A stretch of DNA of 64,000 bases from Ostreococcus lucimarinus (lineage: Eukaryota), in NCBI GenBank assembly GCA_000092065.1, contig CP000584.1, one strand, 5' to 3'. The stretch's first letter is position 1; each line of letters opens with the position of its first letter. The notes under the pieces were generated by a model, which was not told the DNA's origin, made no database searches, and saw only the letters and a list, made by a program, of their open reading frames with translations. The position numbers were made by a program, and so were the translations under genes. Shown here piece by piece: positions 24,396-60,972 of this stretch.

Positions 24396-25076
24396 GTTCA
24401 ACTCTCCAGCAAGGTGACCGTTTCTGGTCTCAAGCAAACCGCGCGCGTGAACGCGCGCACGGTGAAGACCGCCGCGCACTGCTCCGCCGCCGATGTGACG
24501 CGCAAGGCGGCGTCCTTGGCCGTCGCCGCCGCCGTCGCGGCGACGCCGTTGGTCGTCGTCGAAGAAGCCTTCGCGCGCGACGTGCAACCGTACGCCGGTT
24601 TGACCCCGTGCAAGACGTCCAAGGCGTTCGCAAAGCGTCAAAAGACCGAAATTAAGGCGCTCCAAAAGCGTCTCAAGAAGTACGACCCGGAATCCGCCCC
24701 GGCGCTCGCCCTCAACGCGACGATCGAAAAGACGAAGACGCGATTCGCCAACTACGGCGAAGCCGGTCTCCTCTGCGGTAAGGATGGTCTCCCGCACTTG
24801 ATTGTTGATGGTAACCTCGAGCACCTTGGCGAGTTCGCCGTGCCGGGCTTGGGTTTCCTCTACGTGGCGGGCTGGATTGGCTACGCGGGCCGCTCCTACG
24901 TTCAAATGAACAAGGAAACCGCCGCCAAGCCGACGCAAGGTGAAATCATCATCGATGTCCCGAAGGCGCTCGGCTTGATGTTCCAAGCGGGTGCGTGGCC
25001 GCTCCTCGCCGGTCTTGAGCTCAAGAACGGTACGCTCACGGCGCCGGAGAGCGAGATCACCGTCTCCCCGAGATAA
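24396..25076 (+). CDS. psaF: photosystem I reaction centre subunit III (PsaF) precursor, nuclear-encoded with a bipartite stroma + lumen transit peptide
   Basis: The mature part is [78 protein letters not shown]...[19 protein letters not shown]...[12 protein letters not shown], collinear with plant and algal PsaF. It is preceded by an AFA| lumenal cleavage site, a hydrophobic h-region and an S/T/R/K-rich stromal part. 24396 is the acceptor-defined start of this exon; the ORF-track start at 24414 is a GTG. Stop is TAA at 25074-76. Confidence 0.85.
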
Positions 25077-25309: not shown

Positions 25310-26128
25310 CTACGCGCCGTTCGGACTCGCAGGCATGGCGAGTCGCGTCACCACGAGATCATCGCTGGTCGTCGATTCTTCCACCAAATACTCGATGAGC
25401 ATGATTGCGAAGAACGTCAGGCAAATTGCGATTCCGACGCCGACGCGCAGAAACTTTGACTGCGGTTGAACGCCGACGTTCGCACCCACCTCGGCGGCTT
25501 CCTCCGCCATGGATGCGAGCGCGGAATCAATCTGTAACAGAACCTCCTCGCGACGTTTCTTTCCAACCTCGCGTCGCTCGTCGTCACCGTTCCCCGCCGC
25601 CGCCCCTCCTCTTTTGGGCTGCGGAAACCGACGCTCCAACTCCGCGAGCGCGAGACGATTCCTCGTCTCGGCCTCGGCCTCGACCTCGGCCATCGCCCCG
25701 ACGCGTCGCGAAGACACTTCGACGACCCCCATCCCCGGTTGTTTCCCCAGTCTCCCCATCGTTCGCCGCTCGCGCCGATTTTCCTCCGCGGCCTCCGCCC
25801 ACGCGTCGAGTTCTCGCAGCGCCTCCCTCGCCTTCGTCTCCTTCGCGTCGCTCGCGCTCCCGAGCTGCAGATCCCACACCGCGCGTTCGCCCAATTCCAT
25901 CGCCCCCTGCGCGGCGTCCCGCACCGCGTCCAGCGCCTCGCGCGAGATTTTCGCCGCGCTCGCCCCCGCGAGCGCTCGGCTCGAGCGTTCGACCGCGTCG
26001 AGCGCGCTCGTGAGCTCATCCACGCTCGACGCCCTCGCGCGCACCGCCTCGCGAAGCGCCGCGCATCGCTCGTACACCTCGCTCACCGCGTCGCCGAACG
26101 GCGACGGCGGCGCGCGCGCGGGCGTCAT
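25310..26128 (-). CDS. tail-anchored coiled-coil protein, SNARE-like (family not resolved)
   Basis: A heptad-rich cytosolic region precedes a SNARE-motif-like stretch EEVLLQIDSALASMAEEAAEVGANVGVQPQSKFLR and a single C-terminal TM (VGVGIAICLTFFAIMLIEYLV). The first ATG is at 26126-28. Stop is TAG at 25310-12, convergent with psaF. Confidence 0.4.
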   Translation of the reverse strand: MTPARAPPSPFGDAVSEVYERCAALREAVRARASSVDELTSALDAVERSSRALAGASAAKISREALDAVRDAAQGAMELGERAVWDLQLGSASDAKETKAREALRELDAWAEAAEENRRERRTMGRLGKQPGMGVVEVSSRRVGAMAEVEAEAETRNRLALAELERRFPQPKRGGAAAGNGDDERREVGKKRREEVLLQIDSALASMAEEAAEVGANVGVQPQSKFLRVGVGIAICLTFFAIMLIEYLVEESTTSDDLVVTRLAMPASPNGA

Positions 26129-26382: not shown

Positions 26383-26432
26383 ATGCGCGCGCAGCGTACT
26401 CTGCTCAAGGTGATCATCCTTGGGGACTCGGG
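26383..26432 (+). CDS. RAB7: Rab7 GTPase exon 1 (MRAQRTLLKVIILGDSG, phase 2) joined across a 94-nt intron (26433-26526)
   Basis: ATG is at 26383. The donor GG|GTGAGT splits the Gly codon of the P-loop GDSGVGKT. ACTGAC lies 25 nt before the acceptor TGTAG| at 26525-26. Confidence 0.8.
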
Positions 26433-26526
26433 GTGAGTAACGCGCGCACGGCGAGGCGAAGGCGCTCGAACGAATGAACGCTCGCTCGGGACGCGACTGA
26501 CGCGACGACGATCGTCCGCGATGTAG

Positions 26527-27100
26527 GGTTGGGAAGACGTCGTTGATGGCGCAATACGTAAATAATAAGTTCTCCAAGCAGTACAAGGCGACGATCGGGG
26601 CGGATTTCATGACGAAGGAAATCGTCATCGACGACACGGTGGTGACGTTGCAAATTTGGGATACGGCTGGACAGGAGCGATTTCAGTCGCTCGGCGTGTC
26701 GTTTTATCGCGGTGCGGATTGCGTGATGTGCGTGTACGACGTCAACTCGGCGAAATCGTTCGAGTCGCTCGAGAACTGGCGAAACGAGTTTCTCGTGCAG
26801 GCGTCGCCGAGCGACCCAGAGAAATTTCCCGTCGTCGTCGTGGGGAATAAAATCGACGTAGAGGACGGCAAGGACAGCAAGAGGGTGATCAGCGAGAAGA
26901 AGGCAAAATCGTGGTGCACGTCAAAGGGTGGTTTGATGCACTTCGAGTGCAGCGCGAAGGAAGATATCAACGTCGACGCCGCTTTTGAAGCCGTCGCGAG
27001 GTTCGCCGTGCAAAACGAAGACGCCGAGGAGGACGTGTACTTGCCGGACACCGTTAGCATCGACACGCGCGGCGCCGCACCCTCCAGCGGGTGCTGCTGA
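26527..27100 (+). CDS. RAB7: Rab7 GTPase exon 2
   Basis: (G)[31 protein letters not shown]...[22 protein letters not shown]...GNKID...FECSAKE...AAPSSGCC* is collinear with Rab7. It has P-loop, switch, NKxD and SAK motifs and a C-terminal CC prenylation site. The joined protein is 207 aa, and stop is TGA at 27098-27100. Confidence 0.88.
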
Positions 27101-27277
27101 CGACTTTTACGACTTGTCACGCGCGCACGCAACCATTCAACACCTTTCGTCGTTCCCATTCGCCAACTCGCTCGTCTCGCGTTCCGCGTCCCGCTCCGTG
27201 GATAAAGCGCGCGGCTGAGATTACTCATCATCCTCCATCGTCTGTCTCCACGCCACACCTCGCCGCGCGCGCGTCCG

Positions 27278-28237
27278 ATGGCCATGCTCGCCACGTCCCG
27301 CGCGTACGCTCTCGCGCACGCTCGCCCTCGCCTCGCCTCGCCGTACCGTCATCGCGCGTCGTCGTCGCACCGCGCGGTCGCGGTCGAATCGACGTCGACG
27401 ACGGCGAGCGATCTCGGCGCGCTCGGTGACGGACGATTCTCCAAGCTCCTCGGCGCGCTGGACGTCGCGGAATTGACGTCCGTGATCGCAGGAAGCGACG
27501 AAGCGCTGACGGTGTTCGCGCCGACGGACGAGGCGTTCGAGCGGTGCGCGCGGGACAGGGCGCTGGCGTTCGAGGAACTCGCCGAACGCGAAAACTTGGA
27601 CGAGATATTGAAGTATCACGTCGTGAGCGGCGCGGTGAAGTCGAGCGATTTGAAGAGTGGACAAGTGAAGACGCTGAATGGACGCTCTGTGAAGGTTGAC
27701 GTCGCTGGGGGTGAGGTGAAGGTCGACGGCGTCAAGGTGACGGAGGCGGATAAGGCGGCGTTCGGGGGCAACGTCGTCGTGCACGTCGTGGACGAGGTTG
27801 TTTTTCCGGCGTTTTCGATCAACGCCAAAGTGCAAACGCCGCAAGAAATTCTTGCGTTCGAGGGATGGGCGCCGGAGGTGATTAACGGACGCGTCGCCAT
27901 GCTTGGGTTCGTGCTGGCGCTGACGGGCGAAATCGCCACGGGGGAGTCGTTCACGACGCAGGCGGCGAACAACTTTGGCGAGCTCACGCGCACGATGTTC
28001 GTGTGGAGCTTGGCGTCTCTTTTCCCGGCGTTCAGTTCGAACGAGGGGTACGAGGCGAACCCGTTCAAGATGGCTGACAGTAAGGAATGGGAATTTGTTT
28101 TCCGCGGTTGCCCGCCGTGGCTCGCGGTGAAGGATGTCTTTTCGCCCGAGGTTGAACAGCTGAACGGCCGCGCCGCCATGATTGGCTGCGCTTCGATGAT
28201 CGTTCTTGAAACGCTCCTGGGACACGCGCTCTTCTAG
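27278..28237 (+). CDS. plastid-targeted FAS1 (fasciclin) domain fused to a two-helix LHC/ELIP-like chlorophyll-binding module
   Basis: It has an S/R/A-rich N-terminal presequence. A FAS1 domain follows (LTVFAPTDEAFER...ILKYHVVSG...NGRSVKVD...NVVVHVVDEVVFP). Then come two CAB-type helices carrying the Chl-ligand motif E-x-x-NGR-x-AM: WAPEVINGRVAMLGFVLALTGE and SPEVEQLNGRAAMIGCASMIVLE. ATG is at 27278 and stop TAG at 28235-37. Confidence 0.7.
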   Translation: MAMLATSRAYALAHARPRLASPYRHRASSSHRAVAVESTSTTASDLGALGDGRFSKLLGALDVAELTSVIAGSDEALTVFAPTDEAFERCARDRALAFEELAERENLDEILKYHVVSGAVKSSDLKSGQVKTLNGRSVKVDVAGGEVKVDGVKVTEADKAAFGGNVVVHVVDEVVFPAFSINAKVQTPQEILAFEGWAPEVINGRVAMLGFVLALTGEIATGESFTTQAANNFGELTRTMFVWSLASLFPAFSSNEGYEANPFKMADSKEWEFVFRGCPPWLAVKDVFSPEVEQLNGRAAMIGCASMIVLETLLGHALF

Positions 28238-28364
28238 TGCGTCTTCGCGGACTCGCGCGACTTTTGTCTTTTCTTTTGTTTGGAGAGAGGCAGTGTTCGT
28301 TGGAATGTGGCGATGTTTTTTCGTTACGATCGGTAATTTTTTAGACAAATGAAGATTGTTTTAA

Positions 28365-31300
28365 TCAAAGTCGAAATCGTCGATTCTCCGCCGTCGTCTT
28401 CGAAGGCATGACTTCATCAGAGTCGGAGAAGATCGATTCGTACTCATCGTCCGAATCGCTTTCTACAATGGTCGCTTTTCTCGCTCGTGACGACCTTGGG
28501 AGCTCTAAATCAGGCGCGGCGTTGACCAACCTGTCCGAAGCGCGCGTCGCCTTGTTCCATTTGAAAGCTCGGCGAAGCGCTATGAGATGGAGACGAAGGC
28601 AACGTGCATCACTCTTTTCGTTCGATCTGTGCGAGCAGCGAAGTAGAGGAGCCATCCAGCTCCACGGCAACCAGCCAGGCTGGAGCCAATCGCTTTCGAT
28701 CGCACGCTGAAAGACGATGATCGCCGCCGCGAGCGCAGAAAGCGTTTGAGCCGACCCGGCAAGGTTTCGCCACATCGCTCGGCGCGTCTCGCTCCCGAGC
28801 ACAGAGTTAAAGGCAACGTCGGGAATTTCGCTTTCCAAGGTCAAGAATGCGGATCGAACGCGAGAAATGCCTTCGACATCATCGCTCACTCCGCTCGTCG
28901 CCCATTCGCCATCGTCAGGCCGAGAAGGCAATGCATCGACATCCTTCAAGGCTGCTTGATCCGCGCCGTATCGACGTTGCAACGAGCGCCAAAGATCACC
29001 TTCTTTTCTTCCTTTCGGATTTATGTTGTCGATCAAAACCTTAGTTTCGCTCAACGTCATAATTCCATACTCCGGCTCGACGTCATGATGCTCGTTATCC
29101 TTCGCCGCTTGCACGATGACTTCGCCCCAATTGCCCAATGCCCAGTATTTTTGTCTATGACGATCCGAGCCCAAAGGCTCCCGTCGCGGTGCGGTTTGCA
29201 GCTGGGGCACTTCGACTTCGTGCCACTTGCTTTGCCATCGCACGCGAGCTTGCGCGAGTTCTTCTTCCGTCGGCACTTTTTGTTGCTTTGTTTGCTGGGG
29301 TGCCTTTGCCTTCTTTTCCTTCTTCTCCTCGGGCTTCACCTCTTCGGCGGGCGACGCTTGCGCTTCATCAACATCCATCGGTTGGGTTTCATCCTTAGCC
29401 TTGGCTTCCTCGGCCGCTTTCGCCTCCTCGGCTGCTTTCGCTTCCTCAGCGTCACGCGCCTCACCCTTGCCATCTTCACGATCTAACCGATATTCGCTCC
29501 AAGCTTTGATGTGCTGTCTGATATCCTTCTTGGTTTCGTTGGCCAAGTTCACTCCGTTGTCAATCGAGGTTCGCAACGCGACAGAATCTAACGCTACCGT
29601 CATCAACGTCCGCAACAAAGTGACGCGAGCCTGAGGAGACAAACCATCAAAGCCGACAGCGTCGATATCGCGCGCCAGCGATCTCAATCGTCGCGCAAAG
29701 GCTCCACGGCAACCGCCTGTGTATACGGCGTCTTCGGCGGCGTTGTCGACTTTCTCCATCATGGCGTCTCGTGCGATAATCATCTCGCCCGTGGATGCTT
29801 TGTGCAACGTAGTGCCTTCGAAGGATTTGCAACAACTCACATTGGGCGCATCGTTGTTTTCCTTCTCGCGCACGCAAGTTGGGCAGAACCATTCACCTTC
29901 TGGTTCGGCGAGCAATGGAGGGTCGAGGCACTTTGCGTGGTACTCCCCATCGCAAGAATCGCACAAAAGCACAGTTCCGGCCATGACATCTAATCCGCAC
30001 ACGGAGCAGCCTTCATCCCAAGGGGTCTTCGGAAGTTCGTCGGATCCCGCCTTGGTTTGCTTGAGCGCACCTTCGACAGCCGCGATTAACTCCTTCTTTG
30101 CCTTGGCACCGTTGCCATTAGTGAGACTGGCCATGTTTGTGGCCGCTTCGAGTACGTCTGCTTTGATGAGTTCGTCCATCTCGTCTGCGTTGCTCGTCGA
30201 ATGCGCCGCTGCAGCGTACACGCCCGCGCCGAGGCGAGCGTCGAGGAGACGAATGTCCAAGCCTCTTGGATGTTGTCCCTTCACAGCAGCGCCGTCACCG
30301 CGAAGGCACACTTGGCTCATCGAATGCTGGCACGCCATGTTCCTCAGTGCACATCGAACAGCGTGAATGTGTTGCGACGATTTCGCTTCGGCAACTGCAC
30401 TCTTAGCTTTTTGTCGACGAGACTCAACGACGCGCGAAGAGGAGTCATCAGAGACGCCAGAGCCCAGTGCGTACATCTCAATCTCGGCTGCCGCCAAAGC
30501 TTCGGCGTCACTCAACGCGCAAAGAGCAGGGGAGACTCGAGCGCTGTACTTTTCGACTGCATGACCATGCCAAACTGCACCTTCCGCGTATGAAAGCGGA
30601 TCGATGCCAGCATCACCTGAACACATGTAACGAGTGAAGACATCCGCGGCTTCAGGGAGAATCGGCGGGGCATCTTTCAAGTACGGCTCGTACGCGGGCA
30701 TATCGTGGATCACAGAAGCAGCGTACAAAAATCGACGCACAAGTTCTTGCCACACACCTTTCGTATCCGAGATATGCGAATGCGCATCTGGAAGGAGCTG
30801 CAATGCGCTTGCGCTGGACTTATCCACAGACGCGGCAGCGTCAGCCACGCACGGAGCGATGAGAGCCAAGTGCAAAGAAGCCATGAACTCTTCTGATTCC
30901 TTGGGATTCGACAGCACGCGCGCCAAGGCTTGAACCGTAGGGGGTGATTTCACATCGGCGGCGGATCCAAAGAGTTCACGCTTGAAGCGATCGAGAAACA
31001 TCCAAATTTCCATGATGTCGCCCAACTCTGACTTTTCTTTGAAATCTGGTTCGATCTTCAAGTTTGGCGACATCACAGGCGGCGAGTAAGTCGTATCGGC
31101 GCTATCCGATTCGCGTTCACTCATACCAACGAGCCACTCCTTCTGTTTGTTCTCGAGTTCGTTCATCATTTTGGCGCGTTCTGCATCACGCTTCTTCTTC
31201 TCCTCGGCCTCTTTCGCACGTTTTGCCTTGTTTATCTCCTTTTGCGCTTCGCGTTCGATCGCTGCCTTGGCCTTCGCCGCTTCTCGAACAACCTTCTCCG

Positions 31301-32789
31301 CTTCCCTTTGAGCTTCTTTCTGCATTTTAGCTGCTTGCTTCGCCGCTTCCTTCTCTGCTTTGGCAGCCTCCCGCAAAGAGTCGCGATGCTGCTTCATCAT
31401 GTCCGCGAGCGTTCTTTTCGCGTCCAAACGCTCCTCTCTTTGCTTCGCACGCGTCGCAGCGCTGTCAACGCGCGATATGAGACGCTCAATCAGCTTGCTA
31501 ATGGACTTCTCGACCCTGCTCTGTGCCGACTTTTCGGTCTTTTCCTTCTTCGTCATCTCGCGAATCTTGGCGAGAATTTCCTTGGAATCGCAGAGACGCG
31601 ATTTGGAGCGGCGAACTCGTTCTTCAAACCACCCCTCACGCTCTTCGACAAATTGGTACTTGGCAGCCGCGTCAGATCCTGGCAAACTTTCGATTGCACG
31701 AACGACGCGAACATCATCAAACGAAAAGTGGTCGTGGATCCCAATGGAAACCATGGGGCCGATGGTTTCGCACATCTCAAGCCAAGCACCGAGCGGAGAA
31801 GCCGAGCACACACTCACAGTAGAACCGTCTTTTTCCGTCGACACGACGAATTCAGGCGCATTATCGGAAGCTTTCGTGACTTCACTCGTAAACGTCACGC
31901 CAGAGTCGTTCTTCCAAATCGTCTTGTAACCAAGTGGCCAAATGTGCACGTCATCGTGAAACTCATCGTTATCGCCAAGAACTTGGCCGAAACTCTCCAC
32001 AACCAAATTTTCTCCTAAATCCATCGGCACCGTCGGTTGCTCGGCTTCTCGAGCCTTCTTCACCGCCTCCTCGCGAGACAGCGGCTTGAAGTGTTCGGGT
32101 TTCTTCGCCGCGGCGGACGATTTGAGAATTTTTTGCGGCGCGAGCCCGAGCGCGCGCACCACCTCCAATCTCGATCGATACCTCTCCTTATCGGGCGACC
32201 AGTACAGCGCATCGTACGTTCCCGCGCTCGCGCCTTGTGTCCGCATCGTCGCCGTGCACGTCCAATCATCCGAAAGCTGTCCTCCGCACTTGGCCACGTA
32301 CTCTCGCAACGCCTCCAGCAACGCCGGCGTCGGATCATCCGCGCTCCGATCCGCCCGAATCGCCCCTCCTGTCGTCACCTTCACCCGTTTCGCCGCCTGT
32401 TCATCCCCACCGCTCGCCTCCGCGTTCGCCCCAACCACTTTCCCATCGACGATTTTCGCCCCGGCGCCGACGCTCGCGCTTCGTCCTCGCGTCGACGCGT
32501 GAAAGTCATCGTCATCGTCCTCCTCCTCGTCTTCGTCCTCCTCGTCGATCGAGCTCGCGTCGTAATCCGCATCCTCATCATCCTCGACCCCGTCGTCGCT
32601 CGGTCTCACCGCGCGTCCGTTCGTCGTCGTCGCGTCTCTCGTCGTCTCGGTCTCGACAGGTGTCTTTTGATCATCATCGCCCGTTCGCGTCGCCGCCGTC
32701 GCGTTTTCCCTCGTCTCTTCGCCCTCGCGCGCGTCTTCCCGCGACGCGATCGTCCTTTTGTGCATCTTGAACACTCCCGCGGCGTCCAT
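28365..32789 (-). CDS. BAZ/MBD9-like chromatin protein with MBD, DDT-like, two PHD and WSD/WHIM motifs
   Basis: An MBD core (DWTCTATMRTQGASAGTYDALYWSPDKERYRSRLEVVRALG) resembles the MeCP2 MBD. PHD fingers are CSVCGLDVMAGTVLLCDSCDGEYHAKCLDPPLLAEPEGEWFCPTC and another Cys/His cluster upstream. A K/E-rich coiled region and a C-terminal WSD-like WRNLAGSAQTLSALAAAIIVFQRAIESDWLQPGW are present. The first ATG is at 32787-89 (MDAAGVF...); the ORF-track extension to 33050 is TTG-initiated. Stop is TGA at 28365-67. Confidence 0.7.
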   Translation of the reverse strand: MDAAGVFKMHKRTIASREDAREGEETRENATAATRTGDDDQKTPVETETTRDATTTNGRAVRPSDDGVEDDEDADYDASSIDEEDEDEEEDDDDDFHASTRGRSASVGAGAKIVDGKVVGANAEASGGDEQAAKRVKVTTGGAIRADRSADDPTPALLEALREYVAKCGGQLSDDWTCTATMRTQGASAGTYDALYWSPDKERYRSRLEVVRALGLAPQKILKSSAAAKKPEHFKPLSREEAVKKAREAEQPTVPMDLGENLVVESFGQVLGDNDEFHDDVHIWPLGYKTIWKNDSGVTFTSEVTKASDNAPEFVVSTEKDGSTVSVCSASPLGAWLEMCETIGPMVSIGIHDHFSFDDVRVVRAIESLPGSDAAAKYQFVEEREGWFEERVRRSKSRLCDSKEILAKIREMTKKEKTEKSAQSRVEKSISKLIERLISRVDSAATRAKQREERLDAKRTLADMMKQHRDSLREAAKAEKEAAKQAAKMQKEAQREAEKVVREAAKAKAAIEREAQKEINKAKRAKEAEEKKKRDAERAKMMNELENKQKEWLVGMSERESDSADTTYSPPVMSPNLKIEPDFKEKSELGDIMEIWMFLDRFKRELFGSAADVKSPPTVQALARVLSNPKESEEFMASLHLALIAPCVADAAASVDKSSASALQLLPDAHSHISDTKGVWQELVRRFLYAASVIHDMPAYEPYLKDAPPILPEAADVFTRYMCSGDAGIDPLSYAEGAVWHGHAVEKYSARVSPALCALSDAEALAAAEIEMYALGSGVSDDSSSRVVESRRQKAKSAVAEAKSSQHIHAVRCALRNMACQHSMSQVCLRGDGAAVKGQHPRGLDIRLLDARLGAGVYAAAAHSTSNADEMDELIKADVLEAATNMASLTNGNGAKAKKELIAAVEGALKQTKAGSDELPKTPWDEGCSVCGLDVMAGTVLLCDSCDGEYHAKCLDPPLLAEPEGEWFCPTCVREKENNDAPNVSCCKSFEGTTLHKASTGEMIIARDAMMEKVDNAAEDAVYTGGCRGAFARRLRSLARDIDAVGFDGLSPQARVTLLRTLMTVALDSVALRTSIDNGVNLANETKKDIRQHIKAWSEYRLDREDGKGEARDAEEAKAAEEAKAAEEAKAKDETQPMDVDEAQASPAEEVKPEEKKEKKAKAPQQTKQQKVPTEEELAQARVRWQSKWHEVEVPQLQTAPRREPLGSDRHRQKYWALGNWGEVIVQAAKDNEHHDVEPEYGIMTLSETKVLIDNINPKGRKEGDLWRSLQRRYGADQAALKDVDALPSRPDDGEWATSGVSDDVEGISRVRSAFLTLESEIPDVAFNSVLGSETRRAMWRNLAGSAQTLSALAAAIIVFQRAIESDWLQPGWLPWSWMAPLLRCSHRSNEKSDARCLRLHLIALRRAFKWNKATRASDRLVNAAPDLELPRSSRARKATIVESDSDDEYESIFSDSDEVMPSKTTAENRRFRL

Positions 32790-33020
32790 GGCGACCCGGG
32801 GCGCGCGCCGGCGCGTCGTCAAGTCCGGCTGGTTTGAAATGCGAACCTCGAGCGGGGCGCGTGTCGACGGAATTCGCGCGCGCGCGGCGACACACTGGCG
32901 CGCGCGCGCCCGATCGGCGCGGTCTCGCGAGACGACGAGGCGAGGAAACGGAACGACCGCGCGCGCGCGCGAAGCGGAGGGGCGAACGCGCGCGCATCGG
33001 CGCGCGAACGGGCGATTTCG

Positions 33021-36000
33021 ATGAGCGAAAAGATGAAATCGGCGTTTCAAGCGGCCAAGTCAAAGGTTTCGAGCGCGGTCGAGACGACCAAGGCGCGGTC
33101 GAAGGCGCGACAGACGTCCGCGGGGGGGAGCATGGATGTCGATGCGTCGTTAAGGGGGGTCGGGGACGACGGAGACGCGCGCGAGGCGCTGCGCGAGGCG
33201 AGGGAACACGCGAATTCGTTGGAGCGAGCGCAGGCGGCGCTGAACGGGGAGATGCGGCGGATGGCGAATGAATACGAAAGGGTGCGCGGTGAGCTCGATG
33301 CGGTGAGCCGGGAGAAAGAAGAGGTTCGACAACGAGCGTCGGCGGCGTGGACGGAGATGACGGCGGAGATCGAGGCGTTGAAGGCGGAGCTCGAGCGGGC
33401 TCGAGGCGGGAAAGCGGAGGGCGACGCGGGAGAAGACGCCATAGATGAACTCAAGCAAAAGGCGCACTTGGAGGCGCGAGCGATTAAAAAGGTTCTTATT
33501 GAAGACAGGGAAAAGTTTGCCGCGACGGAGGCTGAGTTGAGGGGGAGAATTAAAGAATTAGAGGACGCGCTCGCGAATGTCGAGGAAGGCGCCAAGTACA
33601 CAAGCGAGGCGAACGCGGAGCTATCGTCCAACGTGCAGACGTTGGAGTCGCAAGTTTCTTCGCTTCGGATAGAAGTGAACGAGAAAAACGCCACGGTAGA
33701 GCGTTTGGAGCGAGCGAGCGCGGCGCCGTCTGAAGAAGTTGCGGCGGCACGTGCGGAGACTCGACAGACGCAAGCCCAAGCCGAAAGACTCGAGTCTTTG
33801 CTCGAGGTCACGAAGTCGGAACTCGAAAAGACGACGTCTTCGCTCGAACAAGAAGAAGCGAACGGCGCTAAAACACGCGAAGCCGTGGTGTCGCTAGAGT
33901 CTCAGTTAGCGGCGGTAACAGCAGAGCTGCAAGCAAGTACAGACGCTCAAGCGTCCACAAGCTCTGCAACAGACGAACTCAAGGCAGAATTAGCCGCCGC
34001 ACGAGTCGAGTACGGCCAAGTACGGTCCGAGCTCGAGGCGAAATCGAAGGCGCTGGAGCAGGCGCAGGCTTCAAGCGTGGCGACAAGTGAGCTCGAGGCG
34101 GAGCTGGCTTCCACGCGCTCTGAGCTCGAGGCGAAATCGAAGGCGCTGGAGCAGGCGCAGGCTTCAAGCGTGGCGACAAGTGAGCTCGAGGCGGAGCTGG
34201 CTTCCACGCACTCTGAGCTCGAGGCGAAATCGAAGGCGCTGGAGCAGGCGCAGGCTTCAAGCGTGGCGACAAGTGAGCTCGAGGCGGAGCTGGCTTCCAC
34301 GCGCTCTGAGCTCGAGGCGAAATCGAAGGCGCTGGAGCAGGCGCAGGCTTCAAGCGTGGCGACAAGTGAGCTCGAGGCGGAGCTGGCTTCCACGCGCTCT
34401 GAGCTCGAGGCGAAATCGAAGGCGCTGGAGCAGGCGCAAGCTTCAAGCGTGGCGACAAGTGAGCTCGAGGCGGAGCTGGCTTCCACGCGCTCTGAGCTCG
34501 AGGCGAAATCGAAGGCGCTGGAGCAGGCGCAGGCTTCAAGCGTGGCGACAAGTGAGCTCGAGGTGGAGCTGGCTTCCACGCACTCTGAGCTCGAGGCGAA
34601 ATCGAAGGCGCTGGAGCAGGCGCAGGCTTCAAGCGTGGCGACAAGTGAGCTCGAGGCGGAGCTGGCTTCCACGCGCTCTGAACTCGAGGCGAAATCGAAG
34701 GCGCTGGAGCAGGCGCAGGCTTCAAGCGTGGCGACAAGTGAGCTCGAGGCGGAGCTGGCTTCCACGCGCTCTGAGCTCGAGGCGAAATCGAAGGCGCTGG
34801 AGCAGGCGCAGGCTTCAAGCGTGGCGACAAGTGAGCTCGAGGCGGAGCTGGCTTCCACGCACTCTGAGCTCGAGGCGAAATCGAAGGCGCTGGAGCAGGC
34901 GCAGGCTTCAAGCGTGGCGACAAGTGAGCTCGAGGCGGAGCTGGCTTCCACGCACTCTGAGCTCGAGGCGAAATCGAAGGCGCTGGAGCAGGCGCAGGCT
35001 TCAAGCGTGGCGACAAGTGAGCTCGAGGCGGAGCTGGCTTCCACGCGCTCTGAGCTCGAGGCGAAATCGAAGGCGCTGGAGCAGGCGCAGGCTTCAAGCG
35101 TGGCGACAAGCGAGCTCGAGGCGGAGCTGGCTTCCACGCACTCTGAGCTCGAGGCGAAATCGAAGGCGCTGGAGCAGGCGCAGGCTTCAAGCGTGGCGAC
35201 AAGCGAGCTCGAGGCGGAGCTGGCTTCCACGCGCTCTGAGCTCGAGGCGAAATCGAAGGCGCTGGAGCAGGCGCAGGCTTCAAGCGTGGCGACAAGCGAG
35301 CTCGAGGCGGAGCTGGCTTCCACGCGCTCTGAGCTCGAGGCGAAATCGAAGGCGCTGGAGCAGGCGCAGGCTTCAAGCGTGGCGACAAGTGAGCTCGAGG
35401 CGGAGCTGGCTTCCACGCGCTCTGAGCTCGAGGCGAAATCGAAGGCGCTGGAGCAGGCGCAGGCTTCAAGCGTGGCGACAAGCGAGCTCGAGGCGGAGCT
35501 GGCTTCCACGCGCTCTGAGCTCGAGGCGAAATCGAAGGCGCTGGAGCAGGCGCAGGCTTTGTCAAGTGAGACGCAGCAACGGTTGGAAACCGCTCGCAAC
35601 ACATCGCAGTCGGAAGTATCCGTGCTGAAGCAAGAGCTTGTAGAAAAGAATCATGCTCTTGCGGAAGCGCAAGCGTCGAGTGTGAACGTGGAAGAAATTC
35701 AAGCCACGACTCAGTTGTTGGAATCTCAGCTTGTTGCAGTGAAAGCAGAGCTTGAAGCAAAGAGCGCAGAGCTCGACGCACAGAAGGAGGCACTCATGCG
35801 CGCCGAAGCGACGAAGAGTTCAAGCGCAGAAGAAGTCGAAACAATGAAAACGACGTTAATGTCTCAACTTGCGATGGTGCAAGACGAACTCGCGTCAAAG
35901 ACCGAGGCGCTCAAGAAGGCAGAGTCTGCGTCGAACGCTGCAGCACAAGAAAAAGCAGCCGCGAAGGAATTGTTCGATTCACAATTGAGCTCTGCGCGAG

Positions 36001-59875: not shown

Positions 59876-60369
59876 CGCGCGCGCGTGTGCCGTCGCGGCG
59901 GTTCGCGGCGGTCGCGTTCGATCGGCATCCGCGTCGTCGTCGTCGTCGGACGCGGGAAAAAATAGGAGGCCCGTCAGTGGAGATGAACATCAAACGGTCT
60001 ACGCGACTGCGTGCGCAGAAAATCGATCCGGCGCGCGCGGGCGCGGTGGCGTCGGTGTCGTTACGGGCTTCGCCCGGGCGGGCTGGGCAGAGAAAGTCAA
60101 CAACGGCGACGGCGTCGGCGCGAGGCGCGCCCGTAATCGCGTCGAAGATCGAGAAACGAAATCGTCGACGACGAAATTTCTCGTCTCGTCATCAAGGATA
60201 AATGCACTCGTCGTCTGCAGGACGCCGACTACGTTTTTTTTTCCGCGGCGACCTCAACCGGCGTTTCGTGGCTGTCGTTTTCTCGCGTCGTCTCGACGCC
60301 TCGGACGCGCGTGACGTCACTTTACGACGCCGACGCGACGACGCACCGACGACGACGACAACGAAAACG

Positions 60370-60972
60370 ATGACGATGACGACGAAAACGATCACCGGGG
60401 CGCTCGTGTGCGCGCTGGCGCTCTCGGCGATGGTGCCAACCTGTTTTGCTAAAGACGTGACGTGGGACGCGATGGCGGACGCCGCCGCGGCGCCGGCGCC
60501 GGCGCCGGCCGACGACGCCGCGGCCCCGGCCCCGGCGCCGACGATGGACGGCGAGCGCACCGTCGTTGACGTCGCGATCGAAGATCCGAGATTCGCGACG
60601 CTCGTCACCGCGGTGGTGGCGGTGCCCGAAGTTCTGGATACGCTCGAGACGCCGGGGCCTTGGACCGTCTTCGCGCCGAGCAACGAGGCCATCGCGACGT
60701 TTTTGGCCGAAAACGGATTGACCGCCGAACAACTCTTGGCTTCGCCTGGTTTGGGTGATGTGTTGAAGAAGCACGTCGTCGCGAGCAAACTTCTCGCCGC
60801 GGACGCGGTGAACGCCGTGAGCGCTGGACCGATTACGCTGACGACGTTGAACGGCGACGTCGACGCGCGCATGGTCGACGGAACGCTGTACGTCGGTGGC
60901 GCGGCCGTCGTCCAGGTGGACATCATGGCGGACAACGGCGTCGTACACGTGATCGATCGCGTGATTCAATGA
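60370..60972 (+). CDS. secreted FAS1 (fasciclin) domain protein
   Basis: It has a signal peptide MTMTTKTITGALVCALALSAMVPTCFA. The FAS1 domain (FATLVTAVVAVPEVLDTLETPGPWTVFAPSNEAIATFL...LKKHVVASKLLAADAV...NGVVHVIDRVIQ) carries conserved H1/H2 boxes. ATG is at 60370 (an upstream in-frame ATG at 60202 would add an R-rich leader), and stop is TGA at 60970-72. Confidence 0.7.
   Translation: MTMTTKTITGALVCALALSAMVPTCFAKDVTWDAMADAAAAPAPAPADDAAAPAPAPTMDGERTVVDVAIEDPRFATLVTAVVAVPEVLDTLETPGPWTVFAPSNEAIATFLAENGLTAEQLLASPGLGDVLKKHVVASKLLAADAVNAVSAGPITLTTLNGDVDARMVDGTLYVGGAAVVQVDIMADNGVVHVIDRVIQ

Follow-up and report, generated by a model that had tools for sequence, protein, structure and literature searches.

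The analysed window, a 64,000-nucleotide stretch of contig CP000584.1 from Ostreococcus lucimarinus, carries on its + strand an intron-less gene whose 319-codon frame runs unbroken from ATG to stop and encodes, in frame, a fasciclin (FAS1) domain followed by an ELIP-type chlorophyll-binding (CAB) module (Table 1). The identical 960-nt gene call was found on three independent public assemblies, and the exact sequence of the protein was matched only in read-archive and metagenome assemblies. Pfam places PF02469 (Fasciclin) at residues 53–177 (E = 4.3e-27, 95.2 bits; curated cut-off 22) and PF00504 (Chloroa_b-bind) at residues 198–311 (E = 3.5e-10, 41 bits; curated cut-off 22.3). Both domains thus exceed their cut-offs in one ORF, including the CAB match whose absence an earlier note on this DNA had named as grounds for abandoning its proposal, and the fusion of the two modules in a single polypeptide is confirmed. 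An NCBIfam scan of the 319-residue protein returned no relevant match, as expected for a eukaryotic protein. The antisense strand holds a longer ORF (27221..28348, 375 aa), which was rejected as a GC-rich artefact because it lacks any Pfam match, leaving the + strand ORF as the gene. Directly upstream lies a Rab7-like gene with an intron at ~26433–26527. The second FAS1 ORF of the window, also pointed out in the earlier note, is present on the + strand (60202/60370..60972; PF02469 at 80 bits).

Table 1. Features of the FAS1–CAB fusion gene and its predicted product.
Feature	Residues	Position	Strand	Basis
Complete intron-less FAS-ELIP gene	319 codons + stop	27278..28237	+	ORF listing; full-length two-domain homologues
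Presumed stromal-targeting transit peptide	1 to ~45	27278..27412	+	Composition, disorder, low sequence conservation
Single FAS1 (fasciclin / beta-Ig-H3) domain	53–177	27434..27808	+	PF02469
Short conserved linker and ELIP N-terminal pre-helix (...AKVQTPQEILAFEGWAP)	178–198	27809..27871	+	Alignment
CAB helix 1, motif E200-V-I-N203-G-R205-V-A-M	199–221	27872..27940	+	AF2, motif, alignment
Middle (second) transmembrane helix	233–252	27974..28033	+	AF2; alignment with ELIP helix 2
Extended H2–H3 loop with fusion-specific ~25-aa insertion	253–289	28034..28144	+	Alignment; stromal side predicted from LHC topology
CAB helix 3, motif E293-Q-L-N296-G-R298-A-A-M	290–314	28145..28219	+	AF2, motif

The N-terminus resembles a plastid transit peptide, as the earlier note had suggested. 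Its first ~45 residues are basic and rich in small and hydroxylated residues (A11, S8, R6, T4), contain just two acidic residues, and are modelled as disordered by AF2 (pLDDT ~36). Mean identity in this region across the family is only 23%, yet its composition is conserved. A Kyte–Doolittle scan over 15 residues detected no hydrophobic thylakoid-transfer segment or h-region in the presequence, which peaks at 0.78 (0.5–1.4) compared with 2.47 for PsaF encoded in the same window. The N-terminus of LHC-fold proteins is stromal, as seen in LHCII structures. Given this topology and the missing lumenal transfer signal, we infer a stromal position for the FAS1 domain. Of the two sides left open in the earlier note, the stroma is thus the more probable, and the lumen was rejected as unlikely.

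The FAS1 domain shows an α1–α2 "jaw" over a hydrophobic tunnel, as in the AstaP fold. Its mean identity within the family is 47%, and the invariant residues belong to generic core motifs only (TxFAPxxxAF, YHV, VHxVD); no family-specific FAS1 surface hinting at a defined partner was found in the family alignment. Matches in the PDB include CupS (2mxa, 6tjv) and LRC6 (6kgx, 5y6p). The linker and pre-helix that follow are better conserved (53% mean identity), with indels in Bathycoccus only, and the pre-helix of non-fused ELIPs (MAF-G-APE) has its aligned counterpart here in ILAFEGWAPE.

The membrane module contains two E-x-x-N-G-R-x-A-M motifs, EVINGRVAM (residues 200–208) and EQLNGRAAM (residues 293–301), in agreement with the earlier note. 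Among 24 aligned family members, the E, N, G, R, A and M of these motifs vary little or not at all. Helix 1 is the best-conserved region of the protein (70% mean identity, against a range of 62–70% for the CAB helices), and its E200, N203, G204, R205, A207 and M208 are invariant. AF2 predicts three long helices in this part, at moderate confidence (pLDDT 51–76). The middle helix is only moderately hydrophobic, with a Kyte–Doolittle value never above 1.0 in any 19-residue window; it matches helix 2 of the canonical three-helix ELIPs column for column, and three of its residues (W243, A246, S247) are invariant. For two CAB helices to share one orientation, the chain between them must cross the membrane an odd number of times, which argues for three helices. 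The two-helix module proposed in the earlier note is therefore replaced by a three-helix one. Proteins of the SEP/LIL3 type have exactly two transmembrane helices, with a CAB motif in the first only, and assignment to this type was rejected on the two motif-bearing helices and the conserved middle helix found here. An LHC antenna protein proper (Lhca, Lhcb, Lhcp), a class marked by long N-terminal and lumenal regions with additional chlorophyll a/b ligands, was likewise rejected: the nearest non-fused relatives are ELIPs of 120–210 aa, of which the three-helix ones of 160–210 aa share the H1/H2/H3 layout, and antenna LHCs in the PDB match at the level of helices only (E of 0.018 or weaker).

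Between helices 2 and 3, all fusion members carry an insertion of the form SSNEGYxANP..SKEW..V.RG.P that is absent from non-fused ELIPs. Seven of its loop positions (S254, G257, P262, S268, W271, G277, P279) are invariant in the family alignment, and AF2 places three short helices in the loop at low confidence (pLDDT 51–61). The Pterosperma sequence P0185 combines a long loop with the lack of a FAS1 domain and is a candidate for secondary loss of the latter.

About 40 homologues share the fused architecture, and none splits the two modules between separate genes; transcript-derived sequences among them come from Ostreococcus, Mantoniella, Bathycoccus, Pyramimonas and Micromonas-like algae. Clustering at 90% identity leaves at least 37 clusters with both domains, including those of Bathycoccus prasinos, Mantoniella beaufortii and Pyramimonas. 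The O. tauri protein (CAL51589.1/XP_003078709.1) is 79% identical over its full length, and the Bathycoccus, Mantoniella and Micromonas-type proteins are 43–53% identical over at least 85% of their length. The fusion is lineage-restricted, a point that the earlier note had proposed to check. A full-length family profile run against a representative library of 1.84 billion proteins recovered four full-length fusions among its best 150 matches (P0020, P0003, P0037 and P0036); multi-FAS1 bacterial proteins fill most of these 150, so the search sets a weak bound on the spread of the fusion. A word-indexed search with the CAB half, in which 46 candidates were scored and most known fusions were missed, served to find non-fused ELIPs only. 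In a neighbour-joining tree of the CAB modules, a rough distance tree over ~135 columns with two partial sequences whose topology we do not rely on, the fused members separate from non-fused ELIPs with one exception, the partial or non-fused P0190, P0193 and P0197 sitting beside the divergent fusion P0363. The helix-3 motif is kept in all Mamiellophyceae-type members and has decayed in the Pyramimonas-type ones, where its Asn and Arg are lost, indicating that full LHC-core pigment binding is not essential family-wide.

The protein belongs to an already named family and is a re-discovery rather than a discovery. The earlier note could recall no standard, named LIL subfamily of this kind; "FAS-ELIP" was reported by Neilson and Durnford (2010, Genome 53:68–78, as cited in PMC5344333) and is also named in Cuvelier et al. 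2017 (PMC5344333) and in PMC10735309. The published architecture comprises a transit peptide, an N-terminal beta-Ig-H3/fasciclin domain and a C-terminal three-helix CAB domain (PMC5344333), and it is identical in our protein, the M. commoda FAS-ELIP and the O. tauri entries Q01B58 and XP_003078709.1. With ~50% full-length identity to the Micromonas- and Mantoniella-type FAS-ELIPs, the O. lucimarinus protein shows no substantive difference from known members and represents a distinct Ostreococcus-type lineage. In M. commoda, high light raises the FAS-ELIP transcript when combined with UV but not on its own (PMC5344333), a published response that agrees with the light-stress induction guessed at in the earlier note, and the protein increases under phosphate limitation (PMC5344333, PMC10735309). 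What we add is that the family reaches the Pyramimonadales, whose members show a decayed helix-3 motif, and that all members share the fusion-specific stromal-loop insertion.

We favour, with moderate confidence, the interpretation that the gene is the Ostreococcus-type FAS-ELIP orthologue and encodes a stress-induced, pigment-binding three-helix ELIP that uses its stromal FAS1 domain for docking. The transit peptide would bring the nucleus-encoded precursor into the stroma, from where the three helices would enter the thylakoid membrane with the N-terminus remaining stromal, as in LHC-fold proteins. The short conserved linker would then hold FAS1 at the stromal surface, beside the family-specific H2–H3 loop. 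By analogy with LHCII and ELIPs, helices 1 and 3 are predicted to cross and to be locked by the Glu–Arg bridges E200–R298 and E293–R205; together with N203 and N296, these bridges would provide the core chlorophyll a ligands, flanking two xanthophyll grooves. If O. lucimarinus follows M. commoda, high light plus UV would induce the gene and phosphate limitation the protein, and the ELIP module may transiently hold and quench unbound chlorophyll and xanthophyll while photodamage occurs and is repaired, with FAS1 placing it at a partner complex through protein docking. Several observations count against this interpretation: the M. commoda transcript is silent to high light alone, unlike those of classical ELIPs (PMC5344333); FAS1 conservation is limited to generic core motifs; and Pyramimonas-type members lack the Asn and Arg of the helix-3 motif.

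Canonical three-helix ELIPs (plant ELIP1/2, green-algal ELIP, CBR) align with our protein along the whole membrane module, through the H1 segment APEVINGRxAMLGF...GE..TG, the middle helix, the H3 segment E..NGRAAMxG and the C-terminal G.ALF, and they share the stress induction of FAS-ELIP (PMC5344333). The O. lucimarinus protein differs from them in its 125-aa N-terminal FAS1 domain and the ~25-aa H2–H3 insertion; the response of the Micromonas FAS-ELIP transcript to high light plus UV, rather than to high light alone, is a further difference. The proposed docking role of FAS1 resembles that of known adaptors. CupS of cyanobacterial NDH-1MS is a soluble FAS1 subunit that docks non-covalently, and the LRC6/LR9 linkers of red-algal phycobilisomes are likewise soluble and non-covalent, whereas FAS1 here is covalently anchored to an LHC-fold membrane module. 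Tethering by LIL proteins offers a further parallel. In plastid and cyanobacterial ferrochelatase with its C-terminal CAB helix, in LIL3 and in OHP1/2–HCF244, a pigment-binding CAB membrane element is linked to a stromal protein, or brings one in, where chlorophyll traffic takes place. Our protein shares this design and differs in partner domain and helix number; to our knowledge, none of these LIL tethers uses FAS1.

An alternative, which we judge unlikely, is that FAS1 is a water-exposed, AstaP-type carotenoid binder that would pick up or supply xanthophylls where the membrane meets the stroma and trade them with the adjacent ELIP grooves, so that the protein would be a self-contained pigment scavenger and loader. 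AstaPs are single-FAS1 green-algal proteins, induced by photooxidative stress, that bind many carotenoids, and most residues lining their hydrophobic carotenoid tunnel belong to the generic FAS1 core (PMC10147662). Xanthophyll binding is presumed for ELIPs, and FAS-ELIP is stress-induced (PMC5344333). The O. tauri orthologue OUS49375.1 is even annotated as "carotenoid binding protein", a name that probably derives from its CBR/ELIP half. Nevertheless, phmmer finds the FAS1 domain no nearer to AstaPs (E = 7.5e-11 to 4.5e-10) than to adhesion-type FAS1 proteins (5e-28 for periostin and TGFBIp), with R. sphaeroides Fdp at 6e-18. The known AstaPs (PDB 8c18, 22iy, 9wm8) are soluble and unfused, bear signal peptides and show no specific sequence affinity to this FAS1; they are secreted or extraplastidic, whereas our protein has a plastid-type presequence. 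Residue F54 of the RFS motif appears, when AstaPo1 numbering is carried over approximately through a TGFBIp alignment, to occupy the tunnel-periphery position that is Leu in AstaPo1 and Phe in the non-binder. Family members have F, L or C there, a freedom that suggests no carotenoid-specific constraint at this position. By the same approximate mapping, the putative equivalent of the AstaP pair Gln/Asn56-Leu57 is R53-F54; Micromonas-type members have N/D/E-L at these two positions, and the others vary. In AstaPs themselves, the periphery residues (Gln/Asn56-Leu57 and positions 111 and 138) are not decisive for binding, and a cyanobacterial FAS1 protein with a preserved tunnel binds no carotenoids; sequence cannot yet predict binding (PMC10147662). 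We dropped a prediction of carotenoid binding from AstaP determinants because these are weak and the equivalent position varies in the family. No paper tying AstaP to FAS-ELIP was found in the literature searched. If carotenoid binding were true, the protein would be the first case in which a soluble carotenoid carrier is joined covalently to a pigment site of the LHC fold, with a built-in xanthophyll hand-off for photoprotection or for loading repaired or assembling complexes.

We give still less credence to a stromal FAS1 domain serving as a homophilic adhesion module or spacer between thylakoids, or between thylakoid and envelope, with the ELIP mainly as its anchor; that membrane appression would be remodelled in this way under stress seems just as improbable. 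FAS1 domains are classical homophilic adhesion modules (PMC10147662). The short conserved linker keeps FAS1 close to the membrane, and the decay of the helix-3 pigment motif in the Pyramimonas clade fits a protein that is an anchor first. Against this, we know of no evidence for FAS1-mediated membrane stacking in any plastid, and a stress-induced, presumably scarce protein is ill-suited to structural stacking. The CAB helices are conserved above FAS1 (62–70% against 47%), which argues for a role of the membrane module beyond anchoring. A fusion created by mis-joined neighbouring genes, a hidden intron or a frameshift is effectively refuted: spliceosomal introns do occur nearby, as in the Rab7-like gene, and GC-rich DNA yields long spurious ORFs such as the antisense one, but the frame is continuous through both domains, the FAS1–CAB linker is conserved and gapless across genera apart from the Bathycoccus indels, MMETSP transcriptome sequences of Ostreococcus-type algae, Mantoniella and two Pyramimonas species are fused too, and the M. 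commoda protein has been seen in proteomics (Guo et al. 2018, as cited in PMC10735309).

The finding correctly re-discovers an LHC-like subfamily that is restricted to one lineage, and established knowledge is unchanged by it. Among marine picoeukaryotic green algae, the most abundant ones have FAS-ELIP as a conserved plastid protein that responds to stress. Work on AstaPs from 2013 to 2026 has established that some algal FAS1 domains bind carotenoids, which raises the same question for the FAS1 domain of FAS-ELIP. The site that has decayed in Pyramimonas is predicted to be one Glu–Arg/Asn chlorophyll site. Taken with the fusion-specific loop, this decay directs attention to the stromal face and helix 1 of FAS-ELIP, rather than to a full LHC core.

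By its sequence, the 319-residue protein belongs to FAS-ELIP, a family published before; it shows all of the family's architectural features, with a putative transit peptide among them, and is therefore of an already known kind. Cuvelier et al described FAS-ELIP as comprising a predicted transit peptide, an N-terminal beta-Ig-H3/fasciclin domain and a C-terminal three-helix chlorophyll a/b-binding domain, with a transcript strongly up-regulated in high light plus UV and not in high light alone (PMC5344333). The protein is also reported to increase under phosphate limitation (Guo et al, 2018, as cited in PMC10735309), and co-option of the fasciclin domain for protein-protein interaction or signaling has been hypothesized (Neilson and Durnford, 2010, Genome 53:68-78, as cited in PMC5344333). 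The earlier note, whose interpretation was largely right, needs correction on three points: the membrane module has three helices, FAS1 is probably stromal, and the family, which it took not to be a named LIL subfamily, already bears a name in published work. The last slip is understandable, since Engelken et al (2010) make no mention of fasciclin and the name FAS-ELIP is rarely used in the full-text literature searched.

The fusion itself is borne out by a single reading frame that needs no intron, in which both Pfam-A domains score above their cut-offs (22 bits for PF02469, 22.3 bits for PF00504): Fasciclin (PF02469) spans residues 53–177 (E=4.3e-27, 95.2 bits), and the CAB module does have an HMM match, to Chloroa_b-bind (PF00504, residues 198–311, E=3.5e-10, 41 bits). 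Both CAB motifs named in the earlier note, E200-VINGRVAM and E293-QLNGRAAM, were found. The identical protein and the same 960-nt gene call are present on three independent public assemblies. The antisense ORF over the gene has no match in Pfam and was rejected as spurious, of the kind expected in GC-rich DNA (60% GC).

Features of the window discussed in the text
Feature	Position	Strand	Remarks
PsaF (photosystem I subunit)	~24414-25076	+	two genes upstream of FAS-ELIP
272-aa gene	25310-26128	-	between PsaF and Rab GTPase gene; position from offset of L001 1383-2201
Rab7-like small GTPase gene	~26400-27100	+	Ras family, 162 bits
Antisense ORF, 375 aa	27221..28348	-	longer than FAS-ELIP ORF
FAS-ELIP gene	27278..28237	+	single ORF, 319 codons, ATG to stop
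H2-H3 loop (aa 253-289)	28034-28144	+	about 25-aa conserved insertion
Chromatin-type protein	28365-33050	-	1561-aa ORF (called elsewhere as 1466 aa); MBD, FYRN/FYRC, PHD, WSD (DDT-associated) domains
Second single-FAS1 protein	60202-60972, probable start 60370	+	PF02469, 80 bits

Among the neighbors, the chromatin-type gene converges on the FAS-ELIP 3' end, and no Pfam family is recorded for the 272-aa gene. The P-loop of the Rab7-like protein is split by a ~95-nt spliceosomal intron at about 26433-26527 (...LKVIILGDSG/GTGAGT...TGTAG/GVGKTSL...), so introns are present in this genome and the ORF at 26543 is exon 2 only.

Among 5.8 billion proteins searched, at least 37 clusters have both Pfam domains at full length; the homologues thus keep the two domains in one protein rather than in split genes. 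Named members include Ostreococcus tauri CAL51589.1/XP_003078709.1 (79% identical to the FAS-ELIP protein described here and titled 'Chlorophyll a/b binding protein domain'), OUS49375.1 (titled 'carotenoid binding protein'), Bathycoccus prasinos CAL6409295.1, Mantoniella beaufortii (MMETSP1326) and Pyramimonas sp. (MMETSP1081). When the Pyramimonas protein served as the query of another search, P. parkeae (MMETSP0058) and more environmental members came to light. Several fused homologues are transcriptome-derived. In the family alignment the interdomain linker is conserved and gap-free in all but Bathycoccus, where 7 aa are inserted. Together, the intron-free frame, the full-length two-domain homologues and the conserved linker rule out a gene-model artefact. 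Beyond the literature, the fusion extends outside Mamiellophyceae: it occurs in the transcriptomes of two Pyramimonas species and in several related environmental proteins, a minor addition. The closest non-fused CAB homologue, P0185 from Pterosperma sp. CCMP1384 (MMETSP1438), is 49% identical; its H2-H3 loop is long but differs in sequence, and its 95-aa N-terminal region holds no FAS1 domain, a state that could be ancestral or a secondary loss.

The nearest non-fused relatives of residues 185–319 are 120–210 aa long and built like classic three-helix ELIPs (for example, Tetraselmis P0189 and Sanguina P0194): ...F.G.APE(V/I)(I/M)NGR(L/V)AMLGF...GE..TGE... comes first, a hydrophobic middle helix follows, and ...E..NGRAAM(I/V)G...G.ALF comes last. 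In the window protein, helix 2 is only moderately hydrophobic (Kyte-Doolittle at most 1.0 in every 19-residue window) and aligns with ELIP helix 2, with W243, A246 and S247 invariant. In the LHC fold, as seen in LHCII structures, helices 1 and 3 share the same membrane orientation; one crossing is therefore needed between them, which makes the module a three-helix ELIP. The alignment of this conserved middle helix and the LHC-fold orientation rule out a two-helix SEP/LIL3-type identity, and with it the two-helix module proposed earlier.

No part of the protein is under stronger constraint than the CAB helices (mean identity: helix 1, 70%; helix 3, 62%; FAS1, 47%). Two Glu, two Arg and two Asn motif positions are conserved in the family alignment; their LHCII counterparts form helix-crossing salt bridges and ligate four core chlorophyll a. 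Every Mamiellophyceae-type member retains both motifs. In the Pyramimonas-type clade, helix-3 ExxNGR has become ExxVGR, ExxLGQ, ExxLGK, ExxLGY or ExxTGL, with loss of Asn, and often also of Arg, in seven related proteins (P0033, P0037, P0356, P0357, P0359, P0038 and P0358). P0359 additionally lacks the helix-1 Glu (APAALNGR), leaving one Glu-Arg bridge without either partner; apart from this, helix 1 is intact in the clade. The Pyramimonas spread, this decay and P0185 are minor points that leave the classification unchanged.

The first ~45 residues, a putative plastid transit peptide, have a high content of Ala, Ser, Arg and Thr but include two acidic residues; they are disordered in the structure model and form the least conserved region (23% mean identity), with a similar composition in all members. 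As an internal contrast we used the PsaF presequence, which is bipartite and whose gene lies about 2 kb upstream: it carries a clear hydrophobic thylakoid-transfer segment (...AFA), with a maximal 15-residue Kyte-Doolittle value of 2.47, compared to 0.78 in the window protein and 0.5–1.4 across the family, where 15-residue windows revealed no such segment. The N-terminus of the LHC fold lies on the stromal side. Together these points make a stromal position at the thylakoid surface probable for FAS1, with a linker of about 14 aa as its tether; of the two locations previously considered, the stromal one is thus favored, while the lumenal one finds no support from a transfer segment. The same topology would put FAS1 and the H2-H3 loop on one side of the membrane. 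Unlike the non-fused ELIPs compared, which lack both FAS1 and the ~25-aa loop insertion, all fused members carry the insertion SSNEGYxANP..SKEW..V.(K/R)G.P, with seven invariant residues. This constant co-occurrence suggests mutual contact, with the insertion as a candidate contact surface.

The FAS1 domain is a canonical single one. Using phmmer against PDB sequences, it matched periostin and TGFBIp (E=5e-28), Rhodobacter sphaeroides Fdp (E=6e-18), CupS of NDH-1MS (E=4e-12), carotenoid-binding AstaPs (E about 1e-10) and the red-algal phycobilisome linker LRC6 (E=1.7e-8); in Foldseek all of these fell within one order of magnitude of each other. Neither method revealed a specific affinity to a functional subclass, and the residues invariant in the family are generic core motifs only. 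The second FAS1 protein in the window had been described as secreted; its FAS1 ORF stands, its start (MTMTTKTITGALVCALALSAMVPTCFA) is signal-peptide-like, and it has an Ala/Pro-rich spacer. The two FAS1 domains are only 33% identical, so that of FAS-ELIP is not a recent duplicate of this gene.

We favor a model in which stress-induced FAS-ELIP, an induction taken from the literature, would use its stromal FAS1 as a docking module while the ELIP module may transiently bind pigment and quench. The analogy is with the FAS1 adaptors of NDH-1MS (CupS) and phycobilisomes (LRC6, LR9), and with other LIL proteins, which bring soluble partners to places where chlorophyll is trafficked. In the chief alternative, FAS1 would bind carotenoids as AstaP does; its appeal is that AstaPs, too, are algal proteins with a single FAS1 domain and are induced by stress. 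According to the AstaP structure paper (PMC10147662), however, preservation of the tunnel does not suffice, and carotenoid binding is unpredictable from sequence; the one tunnel-periphery position open to comparison varies freely within the FAS-ELIP family, and the full-text literature searched contained no link between AstaP and FAS-ELIP. We commit to the docking role, by analogy. As a discovery, FAS-ELIP is of low interest; a modest interest remains in its function and in the carotenoid hypothesis, which can be tested cheaply.
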